From contig NC_092676.1 of the NCBI RefSeq assembly GCF_964355755.1, forward strand, positions 3,697,888-3,761,887: a DNA stretch of 64,000 nucleotides, given 5' to 3'. The DNA comes from Antedon mediterranea. Its lineage: Eukaryota > Animalia > Echinodermata. Shown piece after piece: positions 744 to 55,553 of the stretch. The notes beneath the pieces are model-generated. The model saw nothing but the letters and a program-made list of their open reading frames with translations, was not told where the DNA came from and did no database searches. Position 1 is the stretch's first letter; each line of letters starts with the position of its first letter. The position numbers and the translations under genes were made by a program.

Positions 744-2372
744 ATGACTGGAGATTGTGATGTTTTCTTCCTGGTTGTATTGACTTTATTGTCTTCATCT
801 TCACTTGCTAATGTTGAGTTTGTTACTAAGCCACCATCAAATGTGACTGTCTATCCAGGTCAGAATGTTTCACTGCCTTGTGTTTTTGAGAATTTAATTC
901 TAAATCACCACATAGTAGAATGGAGTTATTGGCCAAGTTACGAGTATAAGGAGATTATTTCACATGACAGAAATATTTTGTTACCAAGTATTAATAACAT
1001 TGCTGAAAGTTACTCAATTCTAGGTGATGAAATGAATTTCACACTTTTTATCAAAATACCAAGTTCAATAGACTTTAAATCATCTTCTAGTATAAAAACT
1101 GATTATAGATGCTCTGTGTATGAGCTAATCAAAGATGTCCCTATTGAAATAGCAATTTCAACTGTCGTCATACCGAAATATACATTTCATTCTCCAGTGT
1201 GTGGAGCAATCATCAAAACTGTTGTCATGGGAGAAACATTATTATTAGGATGTTGGCCACCAGAGACAGATTATAATGTTACAACAATTTTAACTGTAAA
1301 CAAACAAGTTCTACCTACTACTTATTATAATGGGGGCATTGCTTACAACTTGACTGTAACAAAAGAGTACCATAATGCAGTGTTTGTATGTGAATCGAGA
1401 AGAAAAGAAACAAATGAGACCAGAAGTTGCTCTGTAGGCCCACTCACTGTCAACTACAAACCAGAGATTAACATCACACAGATATCACCACTGGAATACA
1501 TCTGTACTGCAGAGGCTAGACCACCTGTTGATACAACAGTCTGGATTGTGGAATCTAGTGTTCCAGAAGATCACTTTACTATTTCAAATAAGACTTTGAA
1601 ATTTATTAAATTGCCAAAAGTTGGTTCTGAAATAACATGTGAAGCAGGAAATCTTTTGGGAAAAGAATCCAAGTCAATGATCATTCCATTGTTGAACAAT
1701 AATGATGAAGAAAAAATCAAAATTTACATGATCATATTATGCGTTGTAATAACTATTAACATCATTGTTGCAATTGGCGTTTGCTACCTTAAATATAAAA
1801 AGAAACAAAATAATAACAATACTGATGATGACTATGATGATACCACTGAAAGGCAGGAGAGACAAGATGAAGATGAATATCAAATACCTGACAAAAGTAC
1901 CAGTCAACATTACCAATCATTAACATCAGAAACAATGGCTACTAAAAATGATACCACTTATGAAACTGCTTTCACAATTGACAAAGGTCAGAGTGCAAAG
2001 GTCATACAAGATACTTTACCATTCTTGACCTCTATTGATGTACAAAAGATAGAAACTGTATATGATACAACTTATGCTGAATGTGCTGTTAACAAAGAAG
2101 ATGGCACAAAATATGAAGTCATTCCTGATCAGAAGGTAGAAAAGACATCTGGTAAAGTTGATGTGAATAATCCACATGTAAGGAAACGACCTAAAGGACC
2201 TGAATGTGATGAACTTTATATTGAAATCATTGATGACAAAGAAGATATCACAAAACATGAAAGCTGTGAAAACACATCCACAACTAGTGCAGTTTATGTC
2301 AACAATCCATGTGTCAGGAAACAACAGCCTACAGGAACTATATGTGATGAACCTTTATATAGAAATCATTGA
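744..2372 (+). CDS. Single-ORF IgSF type I receptor G1 (SP-V-Ig-Ig-TM-A-type Tyr tail), 542 aa
   Basis: Signal peptide (FFLVVLTLLSSSSLA); V domain with LPC..EW..FTLFI..YRC; two more Cys-paired domains; TM IYMIILCVVITINIIVAIGVCY followed by a basic stretch; tail motifs YDD, YQI, YQSL, YET, YEVI, YVNN. A +1 insertion near 2352 shifts the last few codons. Confidence 0.9.
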   Translation: MTGDCDVFFLVVLTLLSSSSLANVEFVTKPPSNVTVYPGQNVSLPCVFENLILNHHIVEWSYWPSYEYKEIISHDRNILLPSINNIAESYSILGDEMNFTLFIKIPSSIDFKSSSSIKTDYRCSVYELIKDVPIEIAISTVVIPKYTFHSPVCGAIIKTVVMGETLLLGCWPPETDYNVTTILTVNKQVLPTTYYNGGIAYNLTVTKEYHNAVFVCESRRKETNETRSCSVGPLTVNYKPEINITQISPLEYICTAEARPPVDTTVWIVESSVPEDHFTISNKTLKFIKLPKVGSEITCEAGNLLGKESKSMIIPLLNNNDEEKIKIYMIILCVVITINIIVAIGVCYLKYKKKQNNNNTDDDYDDTTERQERQDEDEYQIPDKSTSQHYQSLTSETMATKNDTTYETAFTIDKGQSAKVIQDTLPFLTSIDVQKIETVYDTTYAECAVNKEDGTKYEVIPDQKVEKTSGKVDVNNPHVRKRPKGPECDELYIEIIDDKEDITKHESCENTSTTSAVYVNNPCVRKQQPTGTICDEPLYRNH

Positions 2373-4699: not shown

Positions 4700-5790
4700 A
4701 AATATTGCTACTGTATATTAGAAATAACTATTTCAGCCTACCATGGAGTAATATGATAATAGTTAGTATACCTCCATGCTATTAAAACTCTTCAGACAAT
4801 AATAATGGAATAGAATGGCAGAGGATGAAAAAAAAAACATATTGCAGAGTGCAAGAGTGTAATTTCACTTTTCCTGCTCCAGTGCACAAAGAAATGTTAA
4901 TGCTATGGTTTCTGAACCTGATCAGCTCTCAGCCAATGAGTGAACAGCAGAGTATTACCAATACCAAAAAAAAAACCACAGGTACTTTTATTACTCAAAA
5001 CCTATCACAATAATCTCATGGTTAACTGAGTCTGATCAACTCTCAGCCAATGAGTAAACAGCAGAGGATTATCAATACTAAAAGAATTTTTTGTGTGTGT
5101 GTGTGTGTTATTTTTCACTGTAAACTTGTTGCACATCTCATTGAGACTGTGCCTTTGATTTAAAAGAGATACAATAAAAGTTCAGTTCAGGTACGAACTT
5201 ATCACAATGACCTCATGGTTGACTGAACAACTCTCAGCCAATGAGTGAACAGCAGAAAATTATCAATGTATTAGTTATTACTTCCATTATTTGTTTTCAC
5301 TAGTAGTACTCAATATAGTATTTGTTGGTTTGAAATCAATTATTTCCTTAACTTTCTATACAACAACTTTAAACCACCTGTTTATGAAACAGTCTGGATT
5401 GTGAAAAACAACAATACTCTAAAGTATTAACATTCAGTGAACCATCTGAGGTTGATCACCTGACAAGTGTAACATGCAAAGGGCAAAATGTTATTGGGAC
5501 GGCAATAAAAACATTAAGTATTCAAAAGAAATGTTAATATGTTATAAATGTAAAGATGACAACATTGGAATGCTCTACTAATTGTAAACCTACAATCATT
5601 ATAACAACGTCAGAAAAAAACAAATTATAACTACTAATTATGACGGATTATACATTGGACACAATATTAATGTAACAAAAGGTAAACACAATGCAATGTT
5701 TATTTGTAGTTCAAAGAAGAACATTTCTAAAATTTGTATGACGATTCCAAATCGCAAGATAACGACAACCGTTCCTGTAACACGTAATCA
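4700..5790 (+). pseudogene. D-type receptor remnant: promoter modules plus degraded Ig domains 3-4
   Basis: 5373-5785 aligns by eye with 32921-33373 (ccacctgtt.atgaaacagtctggattgtg, acatgcaaagg.caaaatgttattggg, actaattatgacggattatacattgga) with deletions and stops. Confidence 0.75.
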
Positions 5791-6092
5791 AAATTATATT
5801 ATTTTATATATGCTCAATACTATTAAAAAAAAACCTTTATAAATTTTCTTTGAAAATATTTTTAATATCCTGTTCTATGTTGGGTGTAGTTTTGTATTAA
5901 TGTGTATAGAGCTACAGTATTCTACTGGCAGATGCTTTTACTTATATATCGAAGTTTTAATCTCAATTTGAAATTTAGTATTATTTAGAAAAGTATCTTG
6001 CAGTAAAACGTGTATAATATTCAAATTTTTTTTTAAAAAGTTCCTCGAAATTACACGTACATTGATTTTCCTATGATTCAGGTGAACAGTAT

Positions 6093-7496: not shown

Positions 7497-8309
7497 ATGA
7501 TCAACAACTTTGAAACCAACATGACTGAAGATTGTGATAATGTTTTCTTCCTGGTTGTATTGACTTTATTGTCTTCTTCTTCACTTGCTAATGTTGAGTT
7601 TGTTACTAAGCCACCATCAAATGTGACTGTCTATCGAGGTCAGAGTGTTTCACTGCCTTGTGTTTTTAGGAATTTAATTCCAAATCACCATATAGTAGAA
7701 TGGACTTATTGGCCAAGTTATGAGGAGAATGAGATTATTTCACATGACAGAAATATTTTGTTACCAAGTATTAATAACATTGCTGAAAGGTACTCAATTC
7801 TAGGTGAGGGAATGAATTTTACAATTGCTATCAAAATACCAAGATTAATAGATTTTAAATTATCTTCTAGTATAAGAACTCATTATATATGCTCTGTGTT
7901 AGAACCAAGCAAAGATGTCATAGTAACAGCAACCTCAACTGTTATTATAAAGAAACAACCATTTAGTACTCTAAACAAAGATGAGGAAAACAGTAATAAC
8001 ATTTCAATTATCATCGTTGTAGTTATTGTTGGTTTTGGTATGATTGTTGTCCTCATGATTCTCTGTTTTTCCAGAAAAAAGAAAAGTCAAATAGAAAATA
8101 AAAAAAAAATGAACAAAAATAGTTCTCAGCCAAATACATTAACAACCAACAAACTTGTTTACGATTATGTAGCAGTCACTGAAATCGAGTTAGAAGATTA
8201 TCAGGAAGTGGAGAATGAATTTTACGTTGGCGGTGATATTGTTATCAATGCAAAAAGTAAAACAGAATATGAAAATGTAAACCAATACAACTTAAAGGTC
8301 AGAGACTAA
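7497..8309 (+). CDS. Single-V-domain IgSF receptor G2 (SP-V-TM-shortened B-type tail); start may be 7521
   Basis: V domain followed directly by stalk and TM; tail YDYV, YQEV, YVG, YENV. The homologous rest of the B tail (to ~8677) is out of frame. Confidence 0.85.
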   Translation: MINNFETNMTEDCDNVFFLVVLTLLSSSSLANVEFVTKPPSNVTVYRGQSVSLPCVFRNLIPNHHIVEWTYWPSYEENEIISHDRNILLPSINNIAERYSILGEGMNFTIAIKIPRLIDFKLSSSIRTHYICSVLEPSKDVIVTATSTVIIKKQPFSTLNKDEENSNNISIIIVVVIVGFGMIVVLMILCFSRKKKSQIENKKKMNKNSSQPNTLTTNKLVYDYVAVTEIELEDYQEVENEFYVGGDIVINAKSKTEYENVNQYNLKVRD

Positions 8310-10398: not shown

Positions 10399-12132
10399 AT
10401 GTATAAATACAGTGTTTGCTTCCTTGTGATGTGGATTGCATTGGTTTCTTCTTTTTGTGAGTTTGTTACTAAGCCACCATCAACAGTGACTGTCTATCCA
10501 GGTCAGAATGTTTCACTGCCTTGTGTTTTTGATAAATGTTTACATGAACATCAATACACAGTAGAATGGAGTTATTGGCCAGTCACGTTTGAATCTGCAG
10601 AGATTATTATTATTTCAAATGACAAAAATCTTTTGTTACCAAGTTTTGATCAAATTGCTGAAAGTTACTCAATTCAAGGTTATCGAACGAATTTCACACT
10701 TTTCATCAAAATACCAAGTTTAATTAATTTTAGATTTTCAAGTGTTAGCAGTCAGTATAGATGTTCTGTGTTTGACCCAAGAAACAGTGTCCCTGTTAAA
10801 ATAGCAACTTCAACTGTCATTATGCAGAAACCAACATTTCATTCTCCAGTGTGTAGAAAAATCAAGACAACTGTTGTCATTGGAGAAACATTATCATTAA
10901 GATGGATTTTACTCACCAATAACAGATTATGATGTAACAACAATTTTAACTGTGAACAAACAAGTTCTACCTACAATTATTGCTTACAACTTGACTGTGT
11001 AACAAAAGAGTACCATAATGCAGTGTTTGTATGTGAATCAAGAAGAAAAGAAACAAATGAGACAAGAAGTTGCTCTGTTGGCCCACTCACGGTCAACTAT
11101 AAACCAGAGATTAACATCACACAGATATCACCACTGGAATACATCTGTACTGCAGAGGCTAGACCACCTGTTGATACAACAGTCTGGATTGTGGAATCTA
11201 GTGTTCCAGAAGATCACTTTACTATTTCAAATAAGACTTTGAAATTTACTAAATTGCCAAAAGTTGGTTCTGAAATAACATGTGAAGCAGGCAATCTTTT
11301 GGGAGAAGATTCCAAGTCAATGATCATTCCATTGTTGAACAATAATGATGAAGAAAAAATAAGAATTTACATGATCATATTATGCATTGTTATAACTATT
11401 AACATCATTGTTGCAATTGGCGTTTGCTACCGTAAATATAAAAAGAAACAAAATAATAACATTACTGATGATGACTATGATGATACCACTGAAAGGCAGG
11501 AGAGACAAGATGAAGATGAATATCAAATACCTGACAAAAGTACCAGTCAACATTACCAATCATTAAAATTAGAAAAAGTTGCTACTAATAAAGATACTAC
11601 TTATGAAACTACTTTCACAATTGACAAAGGTCAGAGTGCAAGTGTCATGCCAGATATATACATGAGCTCTATTGATGGTGGACCAAAGATAGAAACTGTG
11701 TATGATACAGCTTATGCTGAATGTGCTGTTAACGAAAAAGATGGCACAAAATATGAAGTCATTCCTGATAAGAATGTAGAAAAGACATCGGGCGAAGTTT
11801 ATGTGAATAATCCACGTGAAAGGAAGCAACAACCTAAAGGACCTGAATGTAATGAACCACATATAGAAATTGTTGTTGACAAACAAGACATTTTTACAAA
11901 ACATGCTGATGTTGAAAACACATCCACACCTAGTGCAGTTTATGTGAATAATCCACATGTCAGGAAACAACAACCTAAAGGACCTGTATGTGATGAACCA
12001 CAAAAAGAAATTGTTGATGACAAACAAGACATCACAAAACATGTTGATGTTGAAAACACTTCCACATCCAGTTCTATTTATGTCAATAATCCGCATGTTA
12101 AAATACAGCCATCTACAAACATTCAGAAATAG
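10399..12132 (+). pseudogene. A-type IgSF receptor G3 with frameshifts in Ig domain 2
   Basis: MYKYSVCF signal peptide and V domain; indels at ~10905-11000 give a stop at 10932; the downstream ORF 11023-12132 encodes the rest, with three YVNNP motifs. Confidence 0.85.
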
Positions 12133-13722: not shown

Positions 13723-14464
13723 ATGATGCATTCTGGTAATATTTACCTACTGATTGTATTGACTTTATTATCTTTGTCTTCATCATATGATTCAAAGTTT
13801 GTTACTAGGCCATCATCAACATTAATTGTTTTTCAAGGTCAAATTCTTTCTCAATACTAATAATAACACTACTAATTTTGATTATTGTACAGAAGTAATC
13901 TGTTTTATTATTATTATAGTAATTGTCTGTTTATATACACAAAAACAAAGAAAGTTAAATCAAAAAATGAAACTACACTGTACAACCAAACCTTCACAAC
14001 AGGAAGACAAGGAGGAGGATTCAATGGTTTTAAACTAAGCAATGGGAAACATGGACAAGTATCAGGAAACAGAAAATGAAATATACGTAGATGGAAATGA
14101 GGTTGATATTAATCAGTCAATCAGAGCAAACGAATTTGAAGATTTGGATGGATATATAGAAAATGAGAATGAAATATACGTAGATGGAAATGAGGTTGAT
14201 ATTAATCAGCCAATCAGAACGAACGAATTTGAAGTTTTGAATGAATATATAGAAAATGAGAATGAAATATACATAGATGGAAATGAGGTTGATATTAATC
14301 AGCCAATCAGAGTGAACAAATTTGAAGATTTGAAAGGATATATAGAAAATGAGAATGAAATATATGTAGATGGAAATGAGGTCAATATTAATCAGCCAAT
14401 CAGAGTGAACAAATTTGAAGACTTGAATGAATATATAGAAAATGAAATATATCAAGTAACTTAA
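13723..14464 (+). pseudogene. D-type receptor remnant G4: signal peptide joined to TM/tail, Ig domains deleted
   Basis: MMHSGNIYLLIVLTLLSLSSSYDSKFVTRPSSTLIVFQGQ..* then an out-of-frame TM (IIIIVIVCLYTQK), DSMVLN-TAA and a 140-aa open repeat ORF. Confidence 0.75.
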
Positions 14465-16185: not shown

Positions 16186-16995
16186 ATGATCAACAACTTT
16201 GAAATCAACATGACTGGAGATTGTGATAATGTTTTCTTCCTGGTTGTATTGACTTTATTGTCTTCTTCTTCACTTGCTAATGTTGAGTTTGTTACTAAGC
16301 CACCATCAACAGTGACTGTCTATCCAGGTCAGAATGTTTCACTGCCTTGTGTTTTTAGGAATTTAACTCCAACTCACCACATAGTAGAATGGAGTTATTG
16401 GCCAAGTTATGACATCAAGTACAATATTTCAAAGGACAGAACTCTTTTGTTACCAAGTATTGATAATATTGCTGAAAGTTACTCAATTCTAGGTGATGGA
16501 ATGAATTTCACAATTGTTATCAAAATACCAAGTTTATTAGACTTTAAATTATCTTCTAGTATAAGAACTTATTATATATGCTCTGTGTTAGAACCAAGCA
16601 AAGGTGTCATAATAACAGCAACCTCAACTGTTATTATAAAGATACAACCATTTAGTACTCTAAACAAAGATGAGGAAAACAGTAATAACTTTTCAATTAT
16701 TACCGTTGTAGTTATTGTTGGATTTGGTATGATTGTTGTCCTCATGATTCTCTGTTTTTCCAGAAAAAAGAAAAGTCAAATAGAAAATGAAAAACAGAAA
16801 AAAAATAGTTCTCAGCAAAATACATTAACAACCAATAAACTTATTTACGATTACGCCACAGTCACTGAAATCGAGTTAGAAGATTATCAGGAAGTGGAGA
16901 ATGAATTTTACATTGGCGGTGATATTGTTATCAATGCAGAAAGTAAAACAGAATATGAAAATGTAAACCAATACAACTTAAAGGTCAGAGACTAA
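16186..16995 (+). CDS. Single-V-domain IgSF receptor G5, paralogue of G2; start may be 16210
   Basis: Same architecture and same tail truncation (YNLKVRD*) as G2. Confidence 0.85.
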   Translation: MINNFEINMTGDCDNVFFLVVLTLLSSSSLANVEFVTKPPSTVTVYPGQNVSLPCVFRNLTPTHHIVEWSYWPSYDIKYNISKDRTLLLPSIDNIAESYSILGDGMNFTIVIKIPSLLDFKLSSSIRTYYICSVLEPSKGVIITATSTVIIKIQPFSTLNKDEENSNNFSIITVVVIVGFGMIVVLMILCFSRKKKSQIENEKQKKNSSQQNTLTTNKLIYDYATVTEIELEDYQEVENEFYIGGDIVINAESKTEYENVNQYNLKVRD

Positions 16996-19096: not shown

Positions 19097-21274
19097 ATGT
19101 ATAAATACAGTGTTTGCTTCCTTGTGATGTGGATTGCATTGGTTTCTTCTTTTTGTGAGTTTGTTACTATGCCACCATCAACAGTGAATGTATATCCAGG
19201 TCAGAATGAATGTTTCACTGCCTTGTGTTTTTGGTACCGGTAAATGTTTACATGAACATCAATACACAGTAAAATGGAGTTATTGGCCAGTCAAGTTTGA
19301 AGCTACAGAGATTATAACTATTTCAAATGACAAAAATCTTTTGTTACTAAGTTTTGATAACATTGCTGAAAGTTACTCAATTCAAGGTTATTTCAAGAAT
19401 TTCACACTTTTCATCAAAATACCAAGTTTAATTAATTTTAGATCTTCCAGTGTTAGCAGTCAGTATAGATGTTCTGTGTTTGAGCCAAATGGTAAAGGTG
19501 TCCCTGTTAAAACAGCAACTTCAACTGTCATTATACAGAAACCAAAATTTAGTAATCCAATTTGTGGAATAATCATCACTCTTGTTGTCATTGGACAAAC
19601 ATTATCATTAGAATGTTACTCACCAGTAAGAGACTATGATGTAACAACAATTTTAACTGTAAACAAACAAGTTCTACCTACTTATTATAATGGGGGCATT
19701 GCTTACAACTTGACTGTAACAAAAGAGTACCATAATGCAGTGTTTGTATGTGAATCGAGAAGAAAAGAAACAAATGAGACCAGAAGTTGCTCTGTTGGCC
19801 CACTCACTGTCAACTATAAACCAGAGATTAACATCACACAGATATCACCACTGGAATACATCTGTACTGCAGAGGCTAGACCACCTGTTGATACAACAGT
19901 CTGGATTGTGGAATCTAGTGTTCCAGAAGATCACTTTACTATTTCAAATAAGACTTTGAAATTTATTAAATTGCCAAAAGTTGGTTCTGAAATAACATGT
20001 GAAGCAGGAAATCTTTTGGGAAAAGAATCCAAGTCAATGATCATTCCATTGTTGAACAATAATGATGAAGACAAAATCAGAATTTACATGATCATATTAT
20101 GCATTGTTATAACTAATAACATCATTGTTGCAATTGGCGTTTGCTACCGTAAACATAAAAAGAAACAAAATAATAACATTACTGATGATGACTATGATGA
20201 TACCACTGTTCCTGAAAGGCAAGAAAGACAAGATGAAGATGAAAAATATCAAATAACTGACAAAAGCACCAGTCAACATTACCAATCATTAACATCAGAA
20301 AGATTGGCTACTAAATATGATACCACTTATGAAACTACTCTCACAATTGACAAAGGTCAGAGTGCAAGGGTTATGCCAGATGCTTTTCCATTCATGACCT
20401 CTATTGATGGTGGACAAAAGATAGAAACTGTATATGATACAGCTTATGCTGAATGTGCTGTTAACGAAAAAGATGACAAAAAATATGAAGTCATTCCTGA
20501 TCAGAATGTAGAAAAGACATCTGATGAAGTTTATGTGAATAATCCACATGTCAGGAAACAACAACCTAAAGGACCTGAATGTGATGAACCACAAATAGAA
20601 ATTGTTGTTGACAAACAAGACATCACAAAACATGCTGATGTTGAAAACACTTCCACATCCAGTTCTGTATATGTTAACAATCCACATGTCAGGAAACAAC
20701 AACCTAAAGGACCTGAATGTTATGAACCACAAATAGAAATTGTTGTTGACAAACAAGACATCACAAAACATGCTGATGTTGAAAACACTTCCACATCCAG
20801 TTCTGTATGTTAACAATCCACATGTCAGGAAACAACAACCTAAAGGTCCTGAATGTGATGAACCACAAATAAAAATTGTTGTTGACAAACAAGACATCAC
20901 AAAACATGCTGATGTTGAAAACACTTCCATATCCAGTTCTGTATATGTTAACAATCCACATGTCAGGAAACAACAACCTAAAGGACCTGAATGTAATGAA
21001 CCACAAATAGAAATTGTTGTTGACAAACAAGACATCACAAAACATGCTGATGTTGAAAACACTTCCACATCCAGTTCTGTTTATGTCAATAATCCACATG
21101 TCAGGAAGCAACAACCTAAAGGATCCTGTATGTGATGAACCACAAAAAGAAATTGTTGTTGACAAACAAGACATCACAAAACATGCTGATGTTGAAAATA
21201 CTTCCACATCCAGTTCTATTTATGTCAATAATCCGCATGTTAGGAAACAGCCATCTACAAACATTCAGAAATAG
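19097..21274 (+). pseudogene. A-type IgSF receptor G6 with a 4-nt duplication frameshift and expanded tail repeats
   Basis: cagaatgaatgttt at ~19203 (aatg duplicated) breaks the V domain start; further frameshifts at ~20807 and ~21123. Confidence 0.85.
20530..21250 (+). repeat. 138-nt (46-aa) coding tandem repeat, about 5 units plus a partial unit
   Basis: Unit VYVNNPHVRKQQPKGPECDEPQIEIVVDKQDITKHADVENTSTSSS; period 138 (aatccacatg at 20541 and 20679). Confidence 0.9.
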
Positions 21275-24289: not shown

Positions 24290-27200
24290 TCACTTTGGTC
24301 CACAAATATTGTATTCTCTGCGCTTCACTGATGCCGTTTGAAATTTAAATTCGCTCTCCTTTTCACCTAACATTTTACCATTTTTTAACGCCTTTTTTTT
24401 CGTCTCGTGCTGAGTATTGTGCAAGTTGGTTGTTTGGTGTTTATTATTATTTGTCTTTTGATGGTATTTTGCTAGTTTTGCCTGTATTAACTGAACTTTG
24501 GAGTTAGGCCTGGTCACCAAGCCAGCTGTAGGAGCAGGTGTACCTATTTGTGCGCGGTACACTCAGCTAGCCCGTCTCGGTACTGGCATCTCCTCGATGG
24601 CTGTCCGTTACTCTACTGCTGACCTAAAATCTTTCAACCAGGGTAAATGTTTCTACGATAATCCATCTTTCTTCAACATTGCTAAGGAGCTCCTGATATT
24701 GAGAAAACCGAGAGGTTCTCGTGGTGGCAGAAATAAAAGTCGTAAGATTAAAGTCGTTATTGGTTATGGGCGTAGGCCTAGGCCTACCACCATGGCCGCC
24801 CTCAACAAAAGTGGCTCTTCTCCAAATAATCTGGTCACAATCAAACTATGTAGATCAAGAGTTTCCTGTCCGAGACTTTTCCTTGCTAATGCCCGCTCTG
24901 TTAAAAATAAGATTGATGAATTTGAAGCCACCATTTCCAAATTCAAAGTCGATATAGCTGTGTTAACAGAGACTTGGCTGAATGATGCTACTATTGATTT
25001 TGTGAATTGTTCCGGTTTTAAAAAGTTCACGAAGAATAGATGCAACAAGAGAGGTGGTGGTGTTGCTATTTTTGTTGGTGATGATTTTGCCTGTGAATCT
25101 TGCATTGCACATGGTAGCTGTAATTTCGAATGCTTTTGGATAAAGACAACTATTCCAGGCAAGTCAAATCAAGGTAGTCACTTTTAAATTGGAGCTATTT
25201 ATTATCCTCCGTCTGCCGCTAATGCGGATTTGTTGATTGAGCACATTGTTGATACAATTGATAACATTCGTTCTATGGATTTCGCTGCTCCTATTGCTAT
25301 TTTGGGTGACTTTAATGACCTAGATCTAGCTGAGCTGGAAGTGAATGTTGGACTGTCGCAAGTTGTTAACTTCGCTACACGAAAGGATGCCCTGTTGGAC
25401 AAGATATTTTTTAGTCGTGCTGATCTTTACCATCTTCCGCAACACTTAGCGCCACTGGGTCGGAGTGACCATAATGCCATCCTATTGGAACCACTGATTG
25501 AATTACCTCAGCACAAGCGTCTATCAGTGCGTTCTCAGCCATATCGTGACTCCTCTGTTTTGTCCTTTGGTCAATGGGTTACAACCCATGAGTGGAATGA
25601 TGTGCTGAATATTGAGGACGTCAATCGAAAAACCAAAATGTTCTCTTCAATTTTGAATGGTGCTTTTAACAAGATCTTTCCTGTGCTGATTAGGAACAAG
25701 CGCACTGCTGACAAGCCCTGGATGTCCGACAAGATTCGAAAATTAATTGACTCTAGACAAAATTTGTTTCGTAGGTTTGGTAGAACGGATGAGTTGCGTT
25801 CAATTCGCAACTTAGTCCAAGATTGTATTAGAAAGGCTAAAAACAAATATTATTGTAATTCCTTATTAAGTCTTAAACGTAACAACCCTGCCATGTGGCA
25901 TAAAGGTATTAAACAACTATGTAATCTTAAGACTAAAAATACTAATTTCACCTTGCCTGGGCTGTCCAAAGTTGAAACTGCCTCTGAGATTAATGCCCAT
26001 TTCTCTAGTGTTTGTAATTCCATCCCTCCTCTTAATTTAAACGATTTGCCTGCTTATCTCCCAGCCCCTGGGCCACCACCTTTAATATATGCTGGTCAGG
26101 TCCTAAAAGCCCTTTGTAATCTTAAGCCTAACAAAGCTGGCCATCCAGATGAACCCCCTATAAACTATATAGAGATTTTGCTCCTGAACTTGCTGAACCT
26201 GTTGCGGATATCTTCAATCATGCATTGAAGGATGGTGTTTTCCCCGACCTTTGGAAAAGGGCTACTGCAGTTCCCATTCCTAAAACTGTGAATGCTAGTT
26301 CTGTCTCTGACCTTAGACCTATTTCCCTTACCTATATTCTTGCCAGGGTATTTGAATCTTTTACTGTTAAGTGGATTCTTGAAGATATTAAGGGTAAATT
26401 AGATTCTCGTCAATTTGGTAGTAGGAAAAAGGCTTCCTCAACTCACTATCTTGTTAGTCTTATTGACTCTACACTAAAAGATGTTGAGAAGGGTAAATGT
26501 TATGTTAACCTATGTGCCACTGACTTTACTAAAGCTTTTGATCGTGTTGATCATAATGTTATTATTATAAAGTTGATTGAACTGGGTGTGAGGTCGTCCA
26601 TAATTCCCATCGTCTGCAGCTTTCTCACTTCCCGTTCTCTCAACACCAAGTTTGCTGGGATTTTGTCATCTTCCAAGTCACTGACTTGTTGTGTCCCACA
26701 GGGGACATTGCTTGGCCCTGTACTTTTCCTAGTACTGTACTTATTAACGATGCTTGTGTTGATTGCTGCAGACGATGGAAATATGTGGATGACCTCACCC
26801 TTGGGGAGGTCGTTCGCAAAGGTGATTTGCCTTCCATGCAATCCCTGTTAGATGATCTGAGTTTTTGGTGTTCATCCAATAATATGATACCCAAACCCTC
26901 CAAATGCCATATCTTGGTTGTCAATTTTCTTAAGGACAAGTCGGATGATATTATATCGCCTTCTTTTAGTCTGAGTGGTTCCATTTTACAAGTAGTTGAT
27001 CACATGACGCTTCTTGGTGTAATCATTCAAAATGACCTGAAATGGGAACTTAACACTAATAATATTGTGTCTAGAGCTTCTAGACGTTTATTTTCCTTGT
27101 GCATTTTGAAGAAAGCAGGAATCTTAATTAATGACCTGTTGACTGTTTATATGGCGTATATAAGACCTATTTTAGAATATGCTGCCCCTGTTTGGCATGG

Positions 27201-32139: not shown

Positions 32140-33666
32140 ATGACTGGATATTGTGATAATATTTACTTCTTGCTTGCACTGACTTTAGTAATGTTTTCAT
32201 CGTCACTTGCTGTTGAGTTCAATTCTAAGCCACCATCAACGGTATCTGTCTATCCAGGTCAGAATGTTTCACTGTCTTGTGTTTTTAGGAATTTAATTCC
32301 CAATCACCACATAGTAGAATGGAGTTATTGGTCAAGTTACGAGAATAACCAGATTATTTCAAATGACAGAAATATTTTGTTACCAAGTATTGATAACATT
32401 GCTAAAAGTTACTCAATTGTAGGTGATGGAATGAATTTCACACTTTTTATCAAAATACCAAGTATAACAGATTTTGGAATTTCTGGTGTACATACACAGT
32501 ATATATGTTCTGTGTTAGAACCAAGCAAGATCGGTTTCGTTGTCCCTGTTACAGCAACTTCAACTGTCATTATAAAGAAACATACATTTAATTCTCCAAT
32601 ATGTGGAGGAATACACAAAACTGTTGTCATTGGAGAAACATTATTATTCGGATGCTTCCCACCAGTGACAAACTATGATGTAACAACAACTTTAAAATTG
32701 AACAAACAAGTTTTACCTATTTATAATTGGTTAATCAATGCTTACATGTTGACTGTAACAAAAGAAGACCATGATGCAGTGTTTGTATGTGAATCAAGAA
32801 GAAAAGAAACAAATGAGACCAGAAGTTGCTCTGTTGGCCCACTCACTGTCAACTACAAACCAGAGATTAACATCACACAAATATCACCAATGGAATATCA
32901 CTGTACTACAGAGGCTAGACCACCTGTTAATGAAACAGTCTGGATTGTGGAAGAAAGCAATACCTTAAATTACAGTATTAACATTTCAAATAACGTATTA
33001 ACATTCAGTGAACCACCTGAAGTTGATCAGCTAACAAGTGTAACATGCAAAGGACAAAATGTTATTGGGACGGCAACAAAAACATTAAGTGTACAAAAGA
33101 AATGTCAATTTGTTGAACCGGATTGTAACTCTCAATATGTTATAAATGTAAATACGACAACATTGGAATGTACTACTGATTGTAAACCTGCAATTATCAT
33201 AACAACGCCAGAAATAAAACAAATTATAACTACTAATTATGACGGATTATACATTGGACACAATATTATTGTAACAAAAGGTGAACACAATGCAACGTTT
33301 ATTTGTAGTTCAAGGAAGAACATTTGTAACACGAGTCCAATACGTGAGATAACGACAACCGTTCTTGTAACACGCAGCAGCGCAGATATTGATCAATACA
33401 CGCAGTTTAGTATACAAGAACTAATAACCACTGTAAATAACATGTTAATCAAAAACGAGGATGAAAAACAAGATAATAATAGTAACTGGATGAATATAAT
33501 AATTTTGGTTATTGCAGTAAGTTTGGTATGCTGTTTTATCCTTATTCTTATAATACTTGTTTGTTTATATACACAAAATAAAAAGAAAGTTAAATCAAAA
33601 AATGAAACTACGACCAAACCTTCACAACAGGAAGACAAGAAGGAGGATTCAATGGTTTTAAACTAA
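32140..33666 (+). CDS. D-type IgSF receptor G7 (SP-V-Ig-Ig-Ig-stalk-TM-short tail), 508 aa
   Basis: The fourth domain (TLECTT..NIIVTKGEHNATFICSSRK) resembles domain 2; TM IIILVIAVSLVCCFILILIILVCL. Confidence 0.88.
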   Translation: MTGYCDNIYFLLALTLVMFSSSLAVEFNSKPPSTVSVYPGQNVSLSCVFRNLIPNHHIVEWSYWSSYENNQIISNDRNILLPSIDNIAKSYSIVGDGMNFTLFIKIPSITDFGISGVHTQYICSVLEPSKIGFVVPVTATSTVIIKKHTFNSPICGGIHKTVVIGETLLFGCFPPVTNYDVTTTLKLNKQVLPIYNWLINAYMLTVTKEDHDAVFVCESRRKETNETRSCSVGPLTVNYKPEINITQISPMEYHCTTEARPPVNETVWIVEESNTLNYSINISNNVLTFSEPPEVDQLTSVTCKGQNVIGTATKTLSVQKKCQFVEPDCNSQYVINVNTTTLECTTDCKPAIIITTPEIKQIITTNYDGLYIGHNIIVTKGEHNATFICSSRKNICNTSPIREITTTVLVTRSSADIDQYTQFSIQELITTVNNMLIKNEDEKQDNNSNWMNIIILVIAVSLVCCFILILIILVCLYTQNKKKVKSKNETTTKPSQQEDKKEDSMVLN

Positions 33667-33669
33667 GCA

Positions 33670-33918
33670 ATGGGAAACATGGACAAGTATCAGGAAACAG
33701 AAAATGAAATATACGTAGATGGAAATGAGGTTGATATTAATCAGCCAATCAGAGTGAACAAATTTGAAGATTTGGATGGATATATAGAAAATGAGAATGA
33801 AATATACGTAGATGGAAATGAGGTCTATATTAATCAGTCTATCAGAGCAAACAAATTTGAACATTTGGATAGATATATAGAAAATGAGAATGAAATATAC
33901 GAAGGAATCGGAAAATGA
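33670..33918 (+). other. In-frame ENEIY-repeat tail ORF directly after the G7 stop codon
   Basis: aac TAA gca ATG gga; same frame as G7; two 93-nt units. Confidence 0.7.
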
Positions 33919-34436: not shown

Positions 34437-36170
34437 ATGACTGGAGATTGTGATAATGGTTTCTTCGTGGTTGTATTGACTTTATTGTCTTCATCTTCAC
34501 TTGCTAATGTTGAGTTTGTTACTAGGCCACCATCAACAGTGACTGTCTATCCAGGTCAGAATGTTTCACTGCCTTGTGTTTTTAGGAATTTAATTCAGAA
34601 TCAGCACAAAGTAGTATGGAGTTATTGGCCAAGTATGTTAAAGATTATTTCAATTGACAGAAATCTCTCATTAACAAGTATTGATAACATTGCTGAAAGT
34701 TACTCAATTCTAGGTGATGGAATGAATTTCACACTTTTTATCAAAATATCCAGAACAATAGATTTTGAATCATCTTCTAATATTAGAAATGATTTTAGAT
34801 GTTCTGTGTTTGAACTAAGCCAAACTTTCCCTTTTAAACTAACAAATCAAGGTGTCCCTGTTGACAGAGCACCTTCAACTGTTATTATACAACCAACATT
34901 TAGTTATCCAGTGTGTGTACAGATCAACACCACTGTTGTCGTTGGAGAAACATTATCATTAAGATGTTACTCACCAGTAACAGATTATGATGTAACAACA
35001 ATTTTAACATTGAACAAACAAGTTCTACCTACAATTTATTATAATGGGTTAATTACTTACAACTTGACTGTAACAAAAGAGTACCATAATGCAGTGTTTG
35101 TATGTGAATCAAGAAGAAAAGAAACAAATGAAACAAGAAACTGCTCTGTTGGCCCACTCACTGTCAACTACAAACCAGAGATTAACATCACACAGATATC
35201 ACCACTGGAATACATCTGTACAGCAGAGGCTAGACCACCAGTTAATGAAATTAACTGGAATGTGGAGCCAAAAATTGCTAGAAAACATTTCAATATTTCA
35301 AAAGATTCATTAACATTGACTAAAAAATTGAAAGCTGATGCTGTTATCAAATGTTGGGCAGAAAATACAGTTGGAAAAACCAAAGAAAAATTTATCATTT
35401 ATTCTAACTTTACTAGTCAGAATCAAGATACTCCAAATGAAAACAATGGTAACATGATAGCTATTATCATTATGGCCAGTTTTGCATTTTTGATGGTTAA
35501 TATTTTTGTTATTGTCCTCATGATTCTCTGTTTTTTCCGTCAAAAGCGATTCAAAAAAGAAAAGAAAAAGCAGAACAAAAATAGTTCTCAGCCAAATAAA
35601 TTAAAAAATAAAAAACATGTTTACGATTACGCCACAGTCACTGAAATCGACTTAGAAGATTATCAGGAAATGGAGAATGAATTGTACGTTGGCGGCGATC
35701 TTGTTATCAATACAGAAAGTAAAACAGAAAATGAAAATCTAAACCAATTTGAAGGTCAGAGACAGGAGATTGACAATTTACTGTATGATGAGCCAACTAC
35801 AAGCTGTAAAGAAGACGCGATGAATAGTGGAAGGAATGAAAAAGGAAACCAAGGAGGACATTTTTATTCCAAAGCAAATAACAAATATTATAAAGAACTA
35901 GAAGATTATCAGGAAACAGAGAACAAATTGTACGTTGGCAGCGATATTGTTAGCAAAAGTGAAAGAAGTAAAGACAATAGAGACCAATTTCAGGGTCAGA
36001 GACAGATTAACAATGTACTATATGATGATCAGCCAACTACAAGTCGTAAAGAAGAGGCGATGAATAATGGAAAACAAAGAGTAAATATTATTTATTCCAA
36101 AGTGAATAAACAAGATTATAAAGAATGTGAAAATGAAATATATCAAGGTTCTGATATATTGTCAAAGTAA
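34437..36170 (+). CDS. Intact B-type IgSF receptor G8 (SP-V-Ig-Ig-TM-long Tyr tail with ITIM-consensus IIYSKV), 577 aa
   Basis: Uninterrupted ORF; internally duplicated tail (EDYQE.EN.LYVG twice, LYD..EP/QPTTS twice); AATAAA at ~36197. Confidence 0.92.
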   Translation: MTGDCDNGFFVVVLTLLSSSSLANVEFVTRPPSTVTVYPGQNVSLPCVFRNLIQNQHKVVWSYWPSMLKIISIDRNLSLTSIDNIAESYSILGDGMNFTLFIKISRTIDFESSSNIRNDFRCSVFELSQTFPFKLTNQGVPVDRAPSTVIIQPTFSYPVCVQINTTVVVGETLSLRCYSPVTDYDVTTILTLNKQVLPTIYYNGLITYNLTVTKEYHNAVFVCESRRKETNETRNCSVGPLTVNYKPEINITQISPLEYICTAEARPPVNEINWNVEPKIARKHFNISKDSLTLTKKLKADAVIKCWAENTVGKTKEKFIIYSNFTSQNQDTPNENNGNMIAIIIMASFAFLMVNIFVIVLMILCFFRQKRFKKEKKKQNKNSSQPNKLKNKKHVYDYATVTEIDLEDYQEMENELYVGGDLVINTESKTENENLNQFEGQRQEIDNLLYDEPTTSCKEDAMNSGRNEKGNQGGHFYSKANNKYYKELEDYQETENKLYVGSDIVSKSERSKDNRDQFQGQRQINNVLYDDQPTTSRKEEAMNNGKQRVNIIYSKVNKQDYKECENEIYQGSDILSK

Positions 36171-38446: not shown

Positions 38447-40098
38447 ATGTATAAATACAGTGTTTGCTTCCTGGTGTTGTGGATTTCATTGGTTTCAAAG
38501 ATATTTTGTAATGTTGGGTTTGTTACTAGGCCACCATCAACAGTGACTGTCTATCCAGATCAGAATGTTTCACTGCCTTGTGTTTTTAATAATTTAATTA
38601 CAAATCACTACATAGTAGAATGGACTAGTTCGCAGGGTAACATAGAACATCCAGATATTATTTCAAATGACAGAAATATTTTGTTACCAAGTACTGATAA
38701 CATTACTGAAAGTTACTCAATTCTAGGTGATGGCATGAATTTCACACTTTTTATCAAAATACCAAGTTTAATAATAGATTTTGGATCAGCTTCTAGTATC
38801 AGCACTCTTTATGCATGTTCTGTGTTTGACGCAAAAGAGAAAGATGTCCCTGTTATAACATCAACTTCAATTGTCATTATACAACCGATATTTAGAGATC
38901 CAGTTTGTTTAAAAATCAACAATACTGTTGTCATTGGAGAAACATTATCATTAGGATGTTACTCATCAGAGACATATTATGAAGTTAAAACAATTTTAAA
39001 AGTGAACAAACAAGTTTTACATACTAATTATTATGTTGGGTCCTTCAATGTTTACAACTTGACAGTAACAAAGGAACACCATAATGCAGTGTTTGTATGT
39101 GAATCAAGAAGAAAAGAAACAAATGAGACCAGAAGTTGCTCTGTTGGCCCACTCACTGTCGGCCCACTCACTGTCAACTACAAACCAGAGATTAACATCA
39201 CACAAATATCACCACTAGCATTCCACTGTACTGCAGAGGCTAGACCACCTGTTAATGAAACAGTCTGGATTATAGAATCTAGTGTTCCAAAAGATCACTT
39301 TACTATTTTATATGGGATTTTGATATTTACTGAATTGCCAAAAGTTGTTTTTGAAATAACATGTGAAGCAGAAAATCTTGTGGGAGAAGATTCCAAGTCA
39401 ATGATCATTCCATTGTTGAAAAATAATTATGAAGAAAAAATAAGAATTTACTTGATCACATTATGCGTTGTTATAACTATTAACATCCTTTTTGCAATTG
39501 TACTTTGCTACCGTAAATATAAAAAGAAACAAAATAATAACATTACTGATGATGACTATGGTGATACCACTGAAAGGCAAGAAAGACAAAATGAAGATGA
39601 ATATCAAATACCTGACAAAAGTACCAGTCAACATTACCAATCATTAACATCAGAAACAATGACTGCCAATAATGATACCACTGAAAGGCAAGAAAGACAA
39701 GATGAAGATGAATATCAAATACCTGACAAAAGTACCAGTCAACATTACCAATCATTAAAATTAGAAAAAGTTGCTACTAATAACGATACTACTTATGAAC
39801 TACTTTCACAATTGACAAAGGTCAGAGTGCAAGGGTCATGCCAGATATATACATGAGCTCTATTGATGGTGGACAAAAGATAGAAACTGTGTATGATACA
39901 GCTTACGCTGAATGTGCTGTTAACAGAGAAGATGGCACAAAACATGAAGTAATTCCTGATCAGAATGAAGAAAACACAGCTGGCGAAGTTTATGTGAATA
40001 ATCCACGTGTCAGGAAACAACAAGGACCTGTGATGAACTTTATATTGAAATCATTGATGAAAAATAGGATGGCACAAAACAGAGTGAAGAATATCTAA
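38447..40098 (+). CDS. A-type IgSF receptor G9; ectodomain and TM intact, tail frameshifted (stop at 39856)
   Basis: MYKYSVCF leader; in-frame 15-nt duplication GPLTVGPLTV; duplicated DTTERQERQ..YQIPDKSTSQHYQSL; a single A is lost at ~39798 relative to G3. Confidence 0.8.
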
Positions 40099-41183: not shown

Positions 41184-41873
41184 ATGGCCACCAAACCCAA
41201 GACTCGCTCTCGCCCAGCCGATATTGAAAGTGCTTGTTCCAACCCTGTGGACTTTAACAATTTTGTACATGCTTCCCTAAAATCATTATTAGATGGGCAG
41301 GCAAAAATTAAAGAGGATTTGAACCAAGCTATTGGATTTAACTCGGACAGAATCGCAGCACTCGAAGAAAACGATATTATCAAGGCTAACAAGATTGGTC
41401 AACTCGAACAAACGGTTGATAAACTATCATCTACGGTTGCGAAGCTCGAACTAGAGGCCAACAAATCCGAACGCTTCAGCCGACGTAACAACGTTCGAAT
41501 TGTGGGACTTAAAGAAGAATCAGGTGAGGATTGTATTGTCTTGGCCAGGAACATTCTAATAGATAACTTTGAATTTAGTGAAATACCAACGATAGAGCGT
41601 GCACATCGAGTCGGTCCTGTACTGCCGGTGAGGCCCCGACACATTATAATTAAACTACTTAGTTATAACTCTAAAGTTCAAGTCATGAAACAGAAGAATA
41701 TTGCCTTACAAGATAAACAGTTTTACGTGATAGATGATCTGACCTTAGTGGATTATAAAGAAAAGAAGAAATGGAAATTTCAAGTTAAAGCTTTATATGA
41801 CAATGGAACTAAACTTAAATTCTCTGCTGGTAAATGGCGAACTTCTACGGGGACTCCCTATATATTCAAGTAA
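41184..41873 (+). CDS. LINE ORF1 (coiled coil + RRM, L1/Tnp_22-like)
   Basis: Heptad region followed by SRRNNVRIVGLKE, IERAHRVG, PRHIIIKL and IDDLT motifs. Confidence 0.85.
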   Translation: MATKPKTRSRPADIESACSNPVDFNNFVHASLKSLLDGQAKIKEDLNQAIGFNSDRIAALEENDIIKANKIGQLEQTVDKLSSTVAKLELEANKSERFSRRNNVRIVGLKEESGEDCIVLARNILIDNFEFSEIPTIERAHRVGPVLPVRPRHIIIKLLSYNSKVQVMKQKNIALQDKQFYVIDDLTLVDYKEKKKWKFQVKALYDNGTKLKFSAGKWRTSTGTPYIFK

Positions 41874-50496: not shown

Positions 50497-52204
50497 ATGA
50501 CTGGAGATTGTAATGTTTTCTTCCTGGTTGTATTGACTTTATTGTCTTCATCTTCACTTGCTGATGTTGAGTTTGTTACTAGGCCACCATCAACATTGAC
50601 TGTCTATCCAGGTCAGAATGTTTCACTGCCTTGTGTTTTTAGGAATTTAATTCAGAATCAGCACAAAGTAGTATGGAGTTATTGGCAAAGTATGTTTAAG
50701 ATTATTTCAGTTGACAGAAATCTCTCATTAACAAGTATTAATAACATTGCTGAAAGTTACTCAATTCTAGGTGATGGAATGAATTTCACACTTTTTATCA
50801 AAATATCCAGAACAATAGATTTTGAATCATCTTCTAATATTAGAAATGATTTTAGATGTTCTGTGTTTGAACTAAGCCAAACTTTCCCTTTTAAAATAAC
50901 AAATCAGAATGTCCCTGTTGACAGAGCACCTTCAACTGTTATTATACAACCAACATTTAGTTATCCAGTGTGTGTACAGATCAACACCACTGTTGTCGTT
51001 GGAGAAACATTATCATTAAGATGTTACTCACCAGTAACAGATTATGATGTAAGAACAATTTTAACATTGAAAAAACAAGTTCTACCTACAATTTATTATA
51101 ATGGGTTAATTACTTACAACTTGACTGTAACAAAAGAGTACCATAATGCAGTGTTTGTATGTGAATCAAGAAGAAAAGAAACAAATGAAACAAGAAACTG
51201 CTCTGTTGGCCCACTCACTGTCAACTACAAACCAGAGATTAACATCACACAGATATCACCACTGGAATACATCTGTACAGCAGAGGCTAGACCACCAGTT
51301 AATGAAATTAACTGGAATGTGGAGCCAAAAATTGCTAGAAAACATTTCAATATTTCAAAAGATTCATTAACATTGACTAAAAAATTGAAAGCTGATGCTG
51401 TTATCAAATGTTGGGCAGAAAATACAGTTGGAAAAACCAACTAACTTTACTAGTCAGAATCAAGATACTCCAAATGAAAACAATGGTAACATGATAGTTA
51501 TTATCATTATGGCCAGTTTTGCATTTTTGATGGTTAATATTTTTGTTATTGTCCTCATGATTCTCTGTTTTTTCCGTCAAAAGCGATTCAAAAAAGAAAA
51601 GAAAAAGCAGAACAAAAATAGTTCTCAGCCAAATAAATTAAAAAATGAAAAACATGTTTACGATTACGCCACAGTCACTGAAATCGACTTAGAAGATTAT
51701 CAGGAAATGGAGAATGAATTGTATGTTGGCGGCGATCTTGTTATCAATACAGAAAGTAAAACACAAAATGAAAATCTAAACCAATTTGAAGGTCAGAGAC
51801 GGGTGATTGACAATGTACTATATGATGAGCCAACTACAAGTAGTAAAGAAGACGCGATGAATAGTGGAAGGAATGAAAAAGGAAACCAAGGAGGACATTT
51901 TTATTCCAAAGCAAATAACAAATATTATAAAGAACTAGAAGATTATCAGGAAACAGAGAATAAATTGTACATTGGTGGTGATATTGTTAGCAATAGTGAA
52001 AGAAGTAAAGACAATAGAGACCAATTTCAGGGTCAGAGACAGATTAACAATGTACTATATGGTGAGCCAACTACAAGTCGTAAAGAAGAGGCGATGAATA
52101 ATGGAAAACAAAGAGTAAATATTATTTATTCCAAAGTGAATAAACAAGATTATAAAGAATGTGAAAATGAAATATATCAAGGTTCTGATATATTGTCAAA
52201 GTAA
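50497..52204 (+). pseudogene. B-type receptor G10: a 20-nt deletion gives a stop at 51444 after Ig domain 3 (pseudogene or secreted form)
   Basis: Near-identical to G8 but lacks agaaaaatttatcatttatt; TM and tail are open in another frame (51395-52204). Confidence 0.85.
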
Positions 52205-54056: not shown

Positions 54057-55553
54057 ATGTATAAATACAGTGTTTGCTTCCTGGTGTTGTGGATTTCATT
54101 GGTTTCAAAGATATTTTGTAATGTTGAATTTGTTACTAGGCCACCATCAACAGTGACTGTCTATCCAGGTCAGAGTGTTACACTGCCTTGTGTTTTTGAT
54201 GACAAATTAATTCTAGATCACCACAAAGTAGAATGGACTTATTCTCAAACTGACTTTGAGGCTCCAGATATTATTTCAAATGACAACAATATTTTGTTAA
54301 CAAGTATTGACAACATTGCTGAAAGTTACTTAATTGTAGGTGATGAAAAGAATTTCACACTTTTTATCAAAATACCAAGATTAATAGATTTTAAATCATC
54401 TTCTAGTATTAGCACTTATTATAGATGTTCTGTGCTTGAACCAAGCAAAGATGTCCCTGTTGAAACAGCAACTTCAACTGTTATTATACAATCAATATTT
54501 AGAGATCCAGTTTGTTTAAAAATTAAAAAAACTGTTGTCATTGGAGAAACATTATCATTAGGATGTTACTCACCAGAGACATATTATGACGTTAAAACAA
54601 TTTTAAAAGTGAACAAACAAGTTTTACATACTAATTATTATGTTGAGACCACCAATGTTTACAACTTGACTGTCACAAAGGAATGTCATGATGCAGTGTT
54701 TGTATGTGAATCAAGAAGAAAAAAAACAAATGAAATCAGAAATTGCTCTGTTGGCCCACTCACTGTCAACTATAAACCAGAGATTTACATCACACAAATA
54801 TCACCAATGGAATACATCTGTACTGCAGAGGCTAGACCACCTGTTAATCAAACAGTCTGGATTATAGAGCCCAACCTTCCCCAGGAAAATTATGAGATAT
54901 CTAATAATACATTAATATTGACTGAAAAGTTAAAGGCTGATTCAGTTATAAAATGCTGGGCAGAAAATTCAGTTGGACCAACAACAAAAAGTTTCAACTT
55001 TGATCAAATAAATGATAAAAATGAAGAAACGGGCAAAAAAAATTATATTTTCCTTATTATTGTTGCAGTCAGTGTTGGAATTGTTGTTGTAATAAGTATA
55101 CTATTGATGATCTATTTTTTAAGAAAAAAAACATTGCATCGAGAAAATAAAACAACAAAACAAGGCGCGTCACAAAATAAAATAAAAAGCAAAGGTAAAG
55201 AAGAACTTGTTTACGACTACGCTACAATAGACGTTACAGATCAGGAAACCGAGAACAGTAATATAAGCAGTAATAAAAGAAACAATGGGCCATCTAAAGA
55301 ACTTAACGATAAGAAAAAGAAACAACACACCTATTCTGAAGTGGATGAGGTGGAAAGTGATAACATACCTGTTTATTCTGAACTAAACAAACCAGATTAT
55401 AAGGAATGTGAAAATGAGATATATGAGGGTCCGACCGGAGTGGCTGATTCTAAAGAGGAAGGAGTACAAGATAATGTAGATGTTTACTCCAAAGTGAACA
55501 AACCAGATTACAAAGAGTGTGAAAATGAGATATATCAAGGTCCTGAAATGTAA
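54057..55553 (+). CDS. Intact IgSF receptor G11 (A-type leader and V domain, B-like domain 3 and tail)
   Basis: MYKYSVCF leader; KLKADSVIKCWAEN; tail YDYA, TYSEV, VYSEL, VYSKV and YKECENEIY twice. Confidence 0.92.
   Translation: MYKYSVCFLVLWISLVSKIFCNVEFVTRPPSTVTVYPGQSVTLPCVFDDKLILDHHKVEWTYSQTDFEAPDIISNDNNILLTSIDNIAESYLIVGDEKNFTLFIKIPRLIDFKSSSSISTYYRCSVLEPSKDVPVETATSTVIIQSIFRDPVCLKIKKTVVIGETLSLGCYSPETYYDVKTILKVNKQVLHTNYYVETTNVYNLTVTKECHDAVFVCESRRKKTNEIRNCSVGPLTVNYKPEIYITQISPMEYICTAEARPPVNQTVWIIEPNLPQENYEISNNTLILTEKLKADSVIKCWAENSVGPTTKSFNFDQINDKNEETGKKNYIFLIIVAVSVGIVVVISILLMIYFLRKKTLHRENKTTKQGASQNKIKSKGKEELVYDYATIDVTDQETENSNISSNKRNNGPSKELNDKKKKQHTYSEVDEVESDNIPVYSELNKPDYKECENEIYEGPTGVADSKEEGVQDNVDVYSKVNKPDYKECENEIYQGPEM

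Follow-up and report, generated by a model that had tools for sequence, protein, structure and literature searches.

A 64,000-nucleotide (nt) stretch of the crinoid Antedon mediterranea genome (NCBI RefSeq assembly GCF_964355755.1, contig NC_092676.1, positions 3,697,888 to 3,761,887, forward strand), called the window below, carries a tandem array of putative membrane receptor genes with immunoglobulin (Ig)-like domains (D1, D2 and D3). Eight of these genes share a 153-nt segment, the core, at the predicted junction of D2 and D3. We found that purifying selection on the protein, and not extra copying between the genes, conserves the core. The mosaic boundary of the family lies at the 3' edge of this protein-constrained junction, and recombination between tandem copies probably ends or crosses over there. 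The window is AT-rich (~30% GC), and translation with the standard code gives a plus-strand array of uninterrupted open reading frames (ORFs), each predicted from its sequence to encode a signal peptide, Ig-like domains, one transmembrane (TM) helix and a tyrosine-rich tail. Ten family genes (G1 to G4 and G6 to G11) and remnants are found in the window, all on the plus strand, and the family coding sequences have no introns (single-exon). Among the eight core-bearing genes, four are intact (G1, G7, G8 and G11), three are pseudogenes (G3, G6 and G10) and one has a truncated tail (G9). Coordinates are window positions.

A blastn search of 1377-1530 against the window returned eight plus-strand copies of the core, seven of them ungapped and 93.5-100% identical to 1377-1529. 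The core is the longest conserved block of the family genes. The reference copy in G1 (1377..1529) encodes residues 212-262. The G3 copy (11020..11172, 96.8%) and the G6 copy (19737..19889, 98.7%) differ from it by five and two nucleotides, all at third positions, with no amino acid (aa) change. The G8 copy (35091..35243, 94.8%) has eight nt differences, seven of them at third positions, and one aa change; the G10 copy (51148..51300, 94.8%) shows the same differences from G1 as G8. More aa changes are found in G7 (32776..32928, 94.8%; 8 nt, 3 aa) and G11 (54693..54845, 93.5%; 10 nt, 5 aa). The G9 copy (39086..39253) reaches 86.3% over 168 aligned nt, which include a single 15-nt insertion and eight mismatches, and its peptide has three changes and a 5-residue duplication relative to G1. 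A 32-mer from the core end had seven matches at three or fewer mismatches, versus none in 100 shuffled sequences. A previous reading of this DNA made from its letters (the sequence-only reading) had described a near-invariant core of about 150 nt in eight genes, almost identical even at third positions. The eight copies are real, but the peptide is letter-identical in only three of the eight genes (G1, G3 and G6), and 30 of the 41 nt differences from G1 in the six other ungapped copies are third-position changes. Mean pairwise identity among the eight genes is 0.93-0.96 in core intervals, 0.70 in the interval starting at 1529 and ~0.58 further downstream. The core is not the sole conserved block: two segments of D1 (G1 831-890, 0.947; 959-1048, 0.885-0.90) reach comparable values.

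Synonymous and non-synonymous changes (dS and dN, per site) were counted in the four intact genes, one for each 3' class. The upstream region (810-1376) has dS 0.214 and dN 0.201, the core (1377-1529) has dS 0.169 and dN 0.038, and the segment after the core (1530-1682) has dS 0.914 and dN 0.479. A codon bootstrap over six lineages gave a dS of 0.140 (0.064-0.246) for the core versus 0.202 (0.150-0.262) upstream, and a dN of 0.037 (0.013-0.064) versus 0.208 (0.173-0.246). In sliding windows, dS in D1 (840-1109) is 0.10-0.14, below that of the core, and dS rises about 5-fold at 1530-1556. It was concluded that the core is special at the protein level only, because its synonymous divergence matches the surrounding block while its dN is low. 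The sequence-only reading had proposed that the core is homogenised by gene conversion, and had named a synonymous divergence equal to that of the flanks as the outcome that would speak against this; the similar dS of core and upstream region is that outcome. Comparison with other species also points to constraint on the protein. Core protein identity between the window genes and four other crinoid proteins (three from Anneissia japonica and one ENA record) is 0.75, as compared with 0.39 in D1, 0.37 in the upstream part of D2 and 0.46 after the core. The junction motif C-x-[IV]-G-P-x-x-V-x-Y-x-P is retained in distant relatives from Saccoglossus (multi-Ig proteins of this hemichordate) and Antedon. 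The lesson is that high nucleotide identity of a block in a gene family is not evidence of conversion until synonymous and non-synonymous changes have been separated. Over 810-1376 in all long genes, D1 and early D2 show dN/dS near 1 (1.15 and 0.81), next to 0.26 in the adjoining core. These ratios suggest that diversifying and relaxed selection are mixed in the membrane-distal domains.

Past the core the genes fall into distinct 3' halves, of which the sequence-only reading had recognized three (A, B and D). We sort them into class A (G1, G3 and G6, with a variant in G9), class B (G8 and G10), class B' (G11) and class D (G7). All-against-all blastn including 500 nt of 5' flank separated two 5' types, each consisting of flank and signal peptide. 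Type I is found in G1, G2, G4, G8 and G10, and in G7 from position -10; type II is found in G3, G6, G9 and G11. The combinations present are I+A, II+A, I+B, II+B' and I+D. Types I and II each occur with A and B/B' classes, which bears out the proposal that upstream and downstream halves assort independently. Recombination was assessed with an in-house breakpoint scan, maximum chi-square and approximately unbiased (AU) tests. Separate 5' and 3' trees, the comparison suggested with that proposal, are incongruent. AU tests reject the 3' tree when applied to the 5' data (delta log-likelihood [lnL] 104, p = 4e-57) and the 5' tree when applied to the 3' data (delta lnL 37.6, p = 1e-4); with the signal-peptide data every other candidate tree is rejected. 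A tree of the core by itself was uninformative, with four of five candidate trees not rejected (the D1 tree topology equals that of the 5'-block tree). When 816-1700 was scanned for the most likely single breakpoint, the maximum fell at 1530-1545 (+167 lnL), and the curve forms a plateau from ~1290 onward. The mosaic boundary was placed at 1530..1556 (plus strand), the place where the 5' block that the genes share, which is young (dS ~0.2), gives way to the old 3' classes (dS ~0.9). The genes had been said to split immediately after ccacctgtt at the core end; the boundary instead varies by gene pair within this interval.

G9 is a clear hybrid. Between -499 and about +820 it shares 90.5% of its sequence with G11, and 100% in the signal peptide; past the switch its identity is 88-97% to class A (about 88-89% to G1 and G3) and 47-59% to G11. 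The crossover interval is 39274..39277 (plus strand), equivalent to G1 1550|1553 and 21-24 nt 3' of the core (maximum chi-square 117 and 102, permutation p <= 0.0005). G9 is an old and real hybrid and not an assembly chimera, because it has diverged by ~10% from both parent types. In the D3 segment of G9 (39254-39406) we counted 19.5 non-synonymous and 0.5 synonymous changes against G1 1530-1682 (dS 0.02, dN 0.17-0.18). This non-synonymous excess may be due to positive selection after the hybrid was formed or to patchy conversion.

Identical tracts between genes were also found. G1 and G6 share a 254-nt tract (1458..1711 = 19818-20071, plus strand) whose 5' end lies inside the core. The two genes are 86.5% identical overall, 80% in D1 and 83-93% in the tail. 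The tract is read as the product of recent gene conversion. Other tracts are found in G1-G3 (148 nt, part of the G1/G6 tract) and G3-G6 (157 nt). Identity in the tract flanks is 80-93% for pairs with G1 and 87-96% for G3-G6. For 19 of the 21 gene pairs that differ in 3' class, the longest exact match (32-71 nt) overlaps the core; G8-G11 and G9-G11 are the two pairs in which it does not.

Several points weigh against this account of the core and its edge. The data come from one window and one haplotype, and the dS and dN values are Nei-Gojobori counts on a MAFFT alignment, not codon-model estimates. The core dS point estimates are slightly under the upstream values (0.140 vs 0.202; 0.169 vs 0.214), and third positions vary about half as often in the core as in the flanks (12/51 vs 58/122 and 29/57). 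Short identical runs between classes fall in the core; the G7-G9 pair shows a core dS of 0.04, and its concordant run at 1397-1481 (p = 0.015 before correction), like the short in-core tract of G3-G8/G10 (p = 0.024), fails correction for 28 pairs. The low variability and the in-core runs favor another explanation, that the core itself has been repeatedly homogenised by conversion and kept near-invariant at all codon positions as a dedicated swapping hub. We regard this as unlikely. Core dS equals upstream dS within error and exceeds that of D1 840-1109, third positions account for most of the differences among the copies, and the core peptide is kept across species that are unable to exchange sequence. 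A modest contribution of extra conversion in the core, which has 51 codons only, is possible. Two further points concern the boundary. Boundaries also occur away from the core, at the signal-peptide/D1 junction (817-829) and in the D1-only genes G2 and G4. Independent events are few, and the boundaries of all four classes (A, B, B' and D) may go back to a single inherited one. Breakpoint clustering at the core is therefore suggestive and unproven.

A further alternative is a single old fusion of the 5' block to the 3' halves, for example at a former exon border, followed by whole-gene duplication and divergence and no recurrent recombination at the core. In its favor, the class boundaries all fall within 1530-1556, and tail classes A and B are also found in other crinoid proteins (B-like tails in three Anneissia japonica proteins and an A-like tail in one ENA record). 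The ages of the parts, compared with 5-6 outside sequences only, argue otherwise. In the D1-D2 protein tree the window genes split from other crinoid sequences with a support of 100. After the core, G1 D3 has an identity of 0.48-0.55 to other crinoid D3s (four from Anneissia japonica and one ENA record), and its identity to G7, G8 and G11 is lower (0.34-0.38). The G8 and G11 D3s group weakly (69) with an Antedon protein, and the D3 classes found after the core in the window do not form a clade of their own. An old age is likewise indicated for the signal-peptide types (dS 0.78). With D1-D2 young and the 3' halves old, it follows that the block from ~810 to 1530-1556 was spread or homogenised after the species split. 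At least three joins are needed, because the 5' block is younger than the crinoid split and the 3' classes look older. The fusion scheme also has to deal with G9, a later hybrid, and with a 254-nt identical tract in two genes that are otherwise well diverged. We consider a single old fusion improbable.

A collapsed or chimeric assembly of repeats could have made false hybrids at the core, which is repeated; short-read contigs break there, and among the matches listed no contig spans a junction. In a false chimera each segment would be identical to its parent, and the divergence of G9 is 9.5% from G11 in the 5' part and ~10% from class A in the 3' part; the core is also just 153 nt long. An assembly artefact is thus very unlikely. 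A nucleotide-level function of the core (RNA structure or a regulatory site) would fit its high nucleotide identity, but synonymous sites vary at the flank rate and we give this explanation hardly any weight. In the same contig searches, the sum of contig depth, which is not copy number, peaked at the core bins in four of four runs including one from a second organism, and three contigs of one run continue past 1529 into B-like sequence absent from the window. Both observations hint at further copies. In one contig of the same run 32951 is linked directly with 39354, but one of the two sides measures only 22 letters, too short to interpret. A presumed RNA run, at 97% likeness, covered genic and intergenic pieces alike at low depth and is uninformative on expression.

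The reading we prefer, a junction frozen by protein constraint whose 3' edge is where recombination ends, suggests a simple mechanism. With no introns, modules of these genes would be exchanged only by in-frame homologous recombination inside the coding sequence. The core, as the longest uninterrupted identity between classes, would be the last usable homology, and unequal crossovers and conversion tracts would pile up at its 3' edge. They would end at the core because no other identity is as long and, past it, homology collapses. On this view the core would be a passive 'homology cliff' and not a purpose-built hub, and its conservation would be the cause of recombination at this place, not the result. 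Receptors made in this way would pair a fast-evolving ectodomain (D1-D2 dN/dS ~1) with differing tyrosine-motif tails. Pseudogenes may act as sequence donors, because they are present in the identical tracts. The combinatorial sensor/signal pairing proposed in the sequence-only reading is overstated, with G3, G6 and G10 disrupted and the G9 tail truncated. More tentatively, and on the sequence evidence at hand, the selection-frozen junction could serve as an in-frame joint through which a fast-evolving, nectin-like sensing ectodomain is placed on 3' halves that are of inhibitory type, of adaptor type or without a tail, pseudogenes being the donors. This would be an echinoderm counterpart of KIR/LILR/CEACAM paired-receptor evolution with a possible role in self/non-self or pathogen-decoy recognition. 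We regard this extension as doubtful, if worth keeping in mind.

The protein segment encoded by the core was located in a predicted structure. An AlphaFold2 model of G1 residues 23-319, built with a 25-sequence alignment, has a predicted local distance difference test (pLDDT) score of 91.4 and contains three Ig domains. In the model the core would form strands F and G of D2, a single continuous strand bridging D2 to D3, and strand B of D3, and the mosaic boundary would fall in the D3 B-C loop. The 15-nt in-frame duplication in G9 (GPLTV GPLTV) sits in the bridging strand and would lengthen an otherwise invariant junction. Ig membership is indicated by invariant Cys, Trp and Cys columns in the alignment and by matches of the family profile to many PDB Ig proteins (E down to 3e-33). 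Pfam Ig matches on the receptors were all sub-threshold (V-set 18-23 bits vs 26; Ig_2 24.9 vs 27), and the remaining Pfam matches on the receptors were dismissed as spurious and TM-driven.

In a Foldseek search with the model, full three-domain ectodomains of necl-5/CD155 and nectin-1 ranked first (6o3o, 4myw, 3alp and 4fmf) and necl-4 ranked tenth (5zo2), with E ~3e-13, TM-scores of 0.39-0.54 and 14-16% identity. Full-length alignments of the family profile were obtained with nectin-1, CADM4 and IgLONs. Profile scores for IgLON, SYG, Robo and CEA proteins equal or exceed those for nectins, and the solved nectins are 14-16% identical. The nearest public proteins are uncharacterised ones of the crinoids Anneissia japonica and Antedon mediterranea (44-52% identity), and one Antedon relative carries the name 'cell adhesion molecule 4-like'. 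Nectins and nectin-like proteins (Necls) end in a cytoplasmic PDZ-binding motif, afadin-binding in nectins and type II in Necls. The family C-termini are ..PLYRNH, ..SMVLN, ..SDILSK, ..YQGPEM and ..LKVRD, and no nectin/Necl PDZ-binding end is found among these five. The predicted three-domain V-C2-C2 ectodomain is the likeness to nectins and Necls (CADM, CD155); the difference is that the present family is tandem, multicopy, intronless and fast-evolving at such low identity. The predicted fold is nectin-like. The genes are not classed as nectins, because the PDZ-binding ends are absent and the identity is only 14-16%.

The individual genes are as follows. G1 (744..2372, 542 aa) is an intact single-exon gene with a type I signal peptide, D1-D2-D3, a TM helix and a class A tail. 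G7 (32140..33666, 508 aa) is intact, with a type I 5' end and a class D 3' half that has an extra Ig-like domain and a short tail. G8 (34437..36170, 577 aa) is intact, type I and class B. G11 (54057..55553, 498 aa) is intact, type II and class B'. G9 (38447..39856) is the hybrid gene, G11-like from the 5' flank through the core and class A in its 3' half, with frame changes that truncate the tail. G3 (10399..12132) is a pseudogene with a type II 5' end, a class A 3' half and an out-of-frame D2 containing a stop. G6 (19097..20813), also type II and class A, is a pseudogene in which added bases past the signal peptide lead to a frameshift and a stop; its 138-nt tail repeats extend to 21249. G10 (50497..52204) is a near-copy of G8 (94.9%) in which a deletion near 51440 leads to a stop before the TM helix. 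G2 (7497..8309, 270 aa) and G4 (16186..16995, 269 aa, 94.6% identical to G2) are short forms without the core, in which D1 is fused directly to a TM helix and a B-like tail. The two are intact D1-only receptors of 5' type I and look like the outcome of a D2-D3 deletion. The remnants are a class D D3-D4 pseudogene fragment with stops (5388..5830), a remnant gene (13736..14445) in which the signal peptide and the start of D1 are joined to a TM helix and a class D tail with 93-nt repeats, and a tail-end fragment of the family at 1-325.

The tails differ in their tyrosine motifs, assigned here as short consensus matches only. Class A tails contain TKYEVI, YQSL and one to three YVN repeats; class B tails contain IIYSKV and further Yxx-hydrophobic sites. 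By gene, IIYSKV is found in G8 and G10, TKYEVI in G1 and G3, and YVN in G1, G3 and G6. A charged TM residue is absent from the short-tailed G7. The class A tail includes a 138-141 nt repeat (46 aa, YVNN motif) with about 2 copies in G1 (2145-2394), 2.2 in G3 (11796-12098) and 5.2 in G6 (20532-21249), where it extends past the stop. Class D tails have an identical in-frame TAA after ..SMVLN in two copies (33664-33666 and ~14036-14038). Beyond this TAA, in-frame 93-nt repeats (ENENEIYVDGNEV.INQ..) stay open for ~90 and ~135 codons; these repeats lie at 33703-33901, 14075-14445 and 1-325. The class D TAA is either a shared recent nonsense mutation giving tail-less receptors or a read-through stop.

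Mobile elements and a satellite lie among the receptor genes. An apparently intact long interspersed nuclear element (LINE) at 41184-45255 contains an ORF1-like ORF and a 935-aa endonuclease/reverse transcriptase (RT) ORF (42448-45255). A degraded LINE and a GC-rich fragment (peak 54% GC) with RT and tyrosine-recombinase-type domains, which we take to be DIRS-like, are also located between receptor genes (24597-27474 and 28348-30631, minus strand). An active LINE, if that is what the intact copy represents, would fit a retroposed origin of the intronless genes. A 62-nt satellite of ~20 units occupies 46726-48094, and every unit contains the same 11 bases with which the core ends in G1, G3 and G6. 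This 11-base match is probably a coincidence.

Crinoids are the earliest-branching living echinoderms, and to our knowledge their immune-type receptor repertoire is almost undescribed. A description of this receptor family was not found in full-text literature searches. The family expands by birth-and-death and hybrid formation, like the leukocyte receptor clusters of vertebrates. In the KIR/LILR genes of the leukocyte receptor complex, a tandem cluster of Ig receptors, hybrid genes arise by non-allelic homologous recombination. Crossovers in that cluster are mostly in introns or intergenic repeats, whereas here they lie inside the coding sequence. The chicken BG (butyrophilin-like) array is another parallel: two 5' types and two 3' types occur in all combinations, trees of the regions reject each other, and hybrid genes are attributed to unequal crossing-over or deletion with expansion and contraction of the array (PMC4046983). 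The single-orientation tandem family, the incongruent 5' and 3' trees, the combinations of types and the hybrid genes are common to both (PMC4046983). BG genes differ in having introns, another fold composition and a vertebrate host, whereas the crinoid genes are intronless and their endpoints lie at one coding junction (PMC4046983). The paired immune receptors Siglec-11/16 and CEACAM are reported to have ectodomains homogenised by gene conversion (PMC5701461, PMC2832619, PMC5112662). As in those receptors, similar ectodomains sit here on differing signalling tails and the ectodomain is younger than the tails. There are differences: we saw no activating partner among the crinoid genes that has a charged residue in its TM helix, tail signalling is putative, and the homogenised block stops within an Ig domain instead of at the border of a domain or exon. 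Evolution in this mode is textbook knowledge for the immune-receptor clusters of vertebrates; what is new is the lineage, the family and the coding-junction joint in intronless genes. If the receptors are expressed and signalling-competent, the array would offer a tractable non-vertebrate case for re-pairing of ectodomains and tails, and for the question whether, in genes without introns, recombination sites are set by coding segments under protein constraint.

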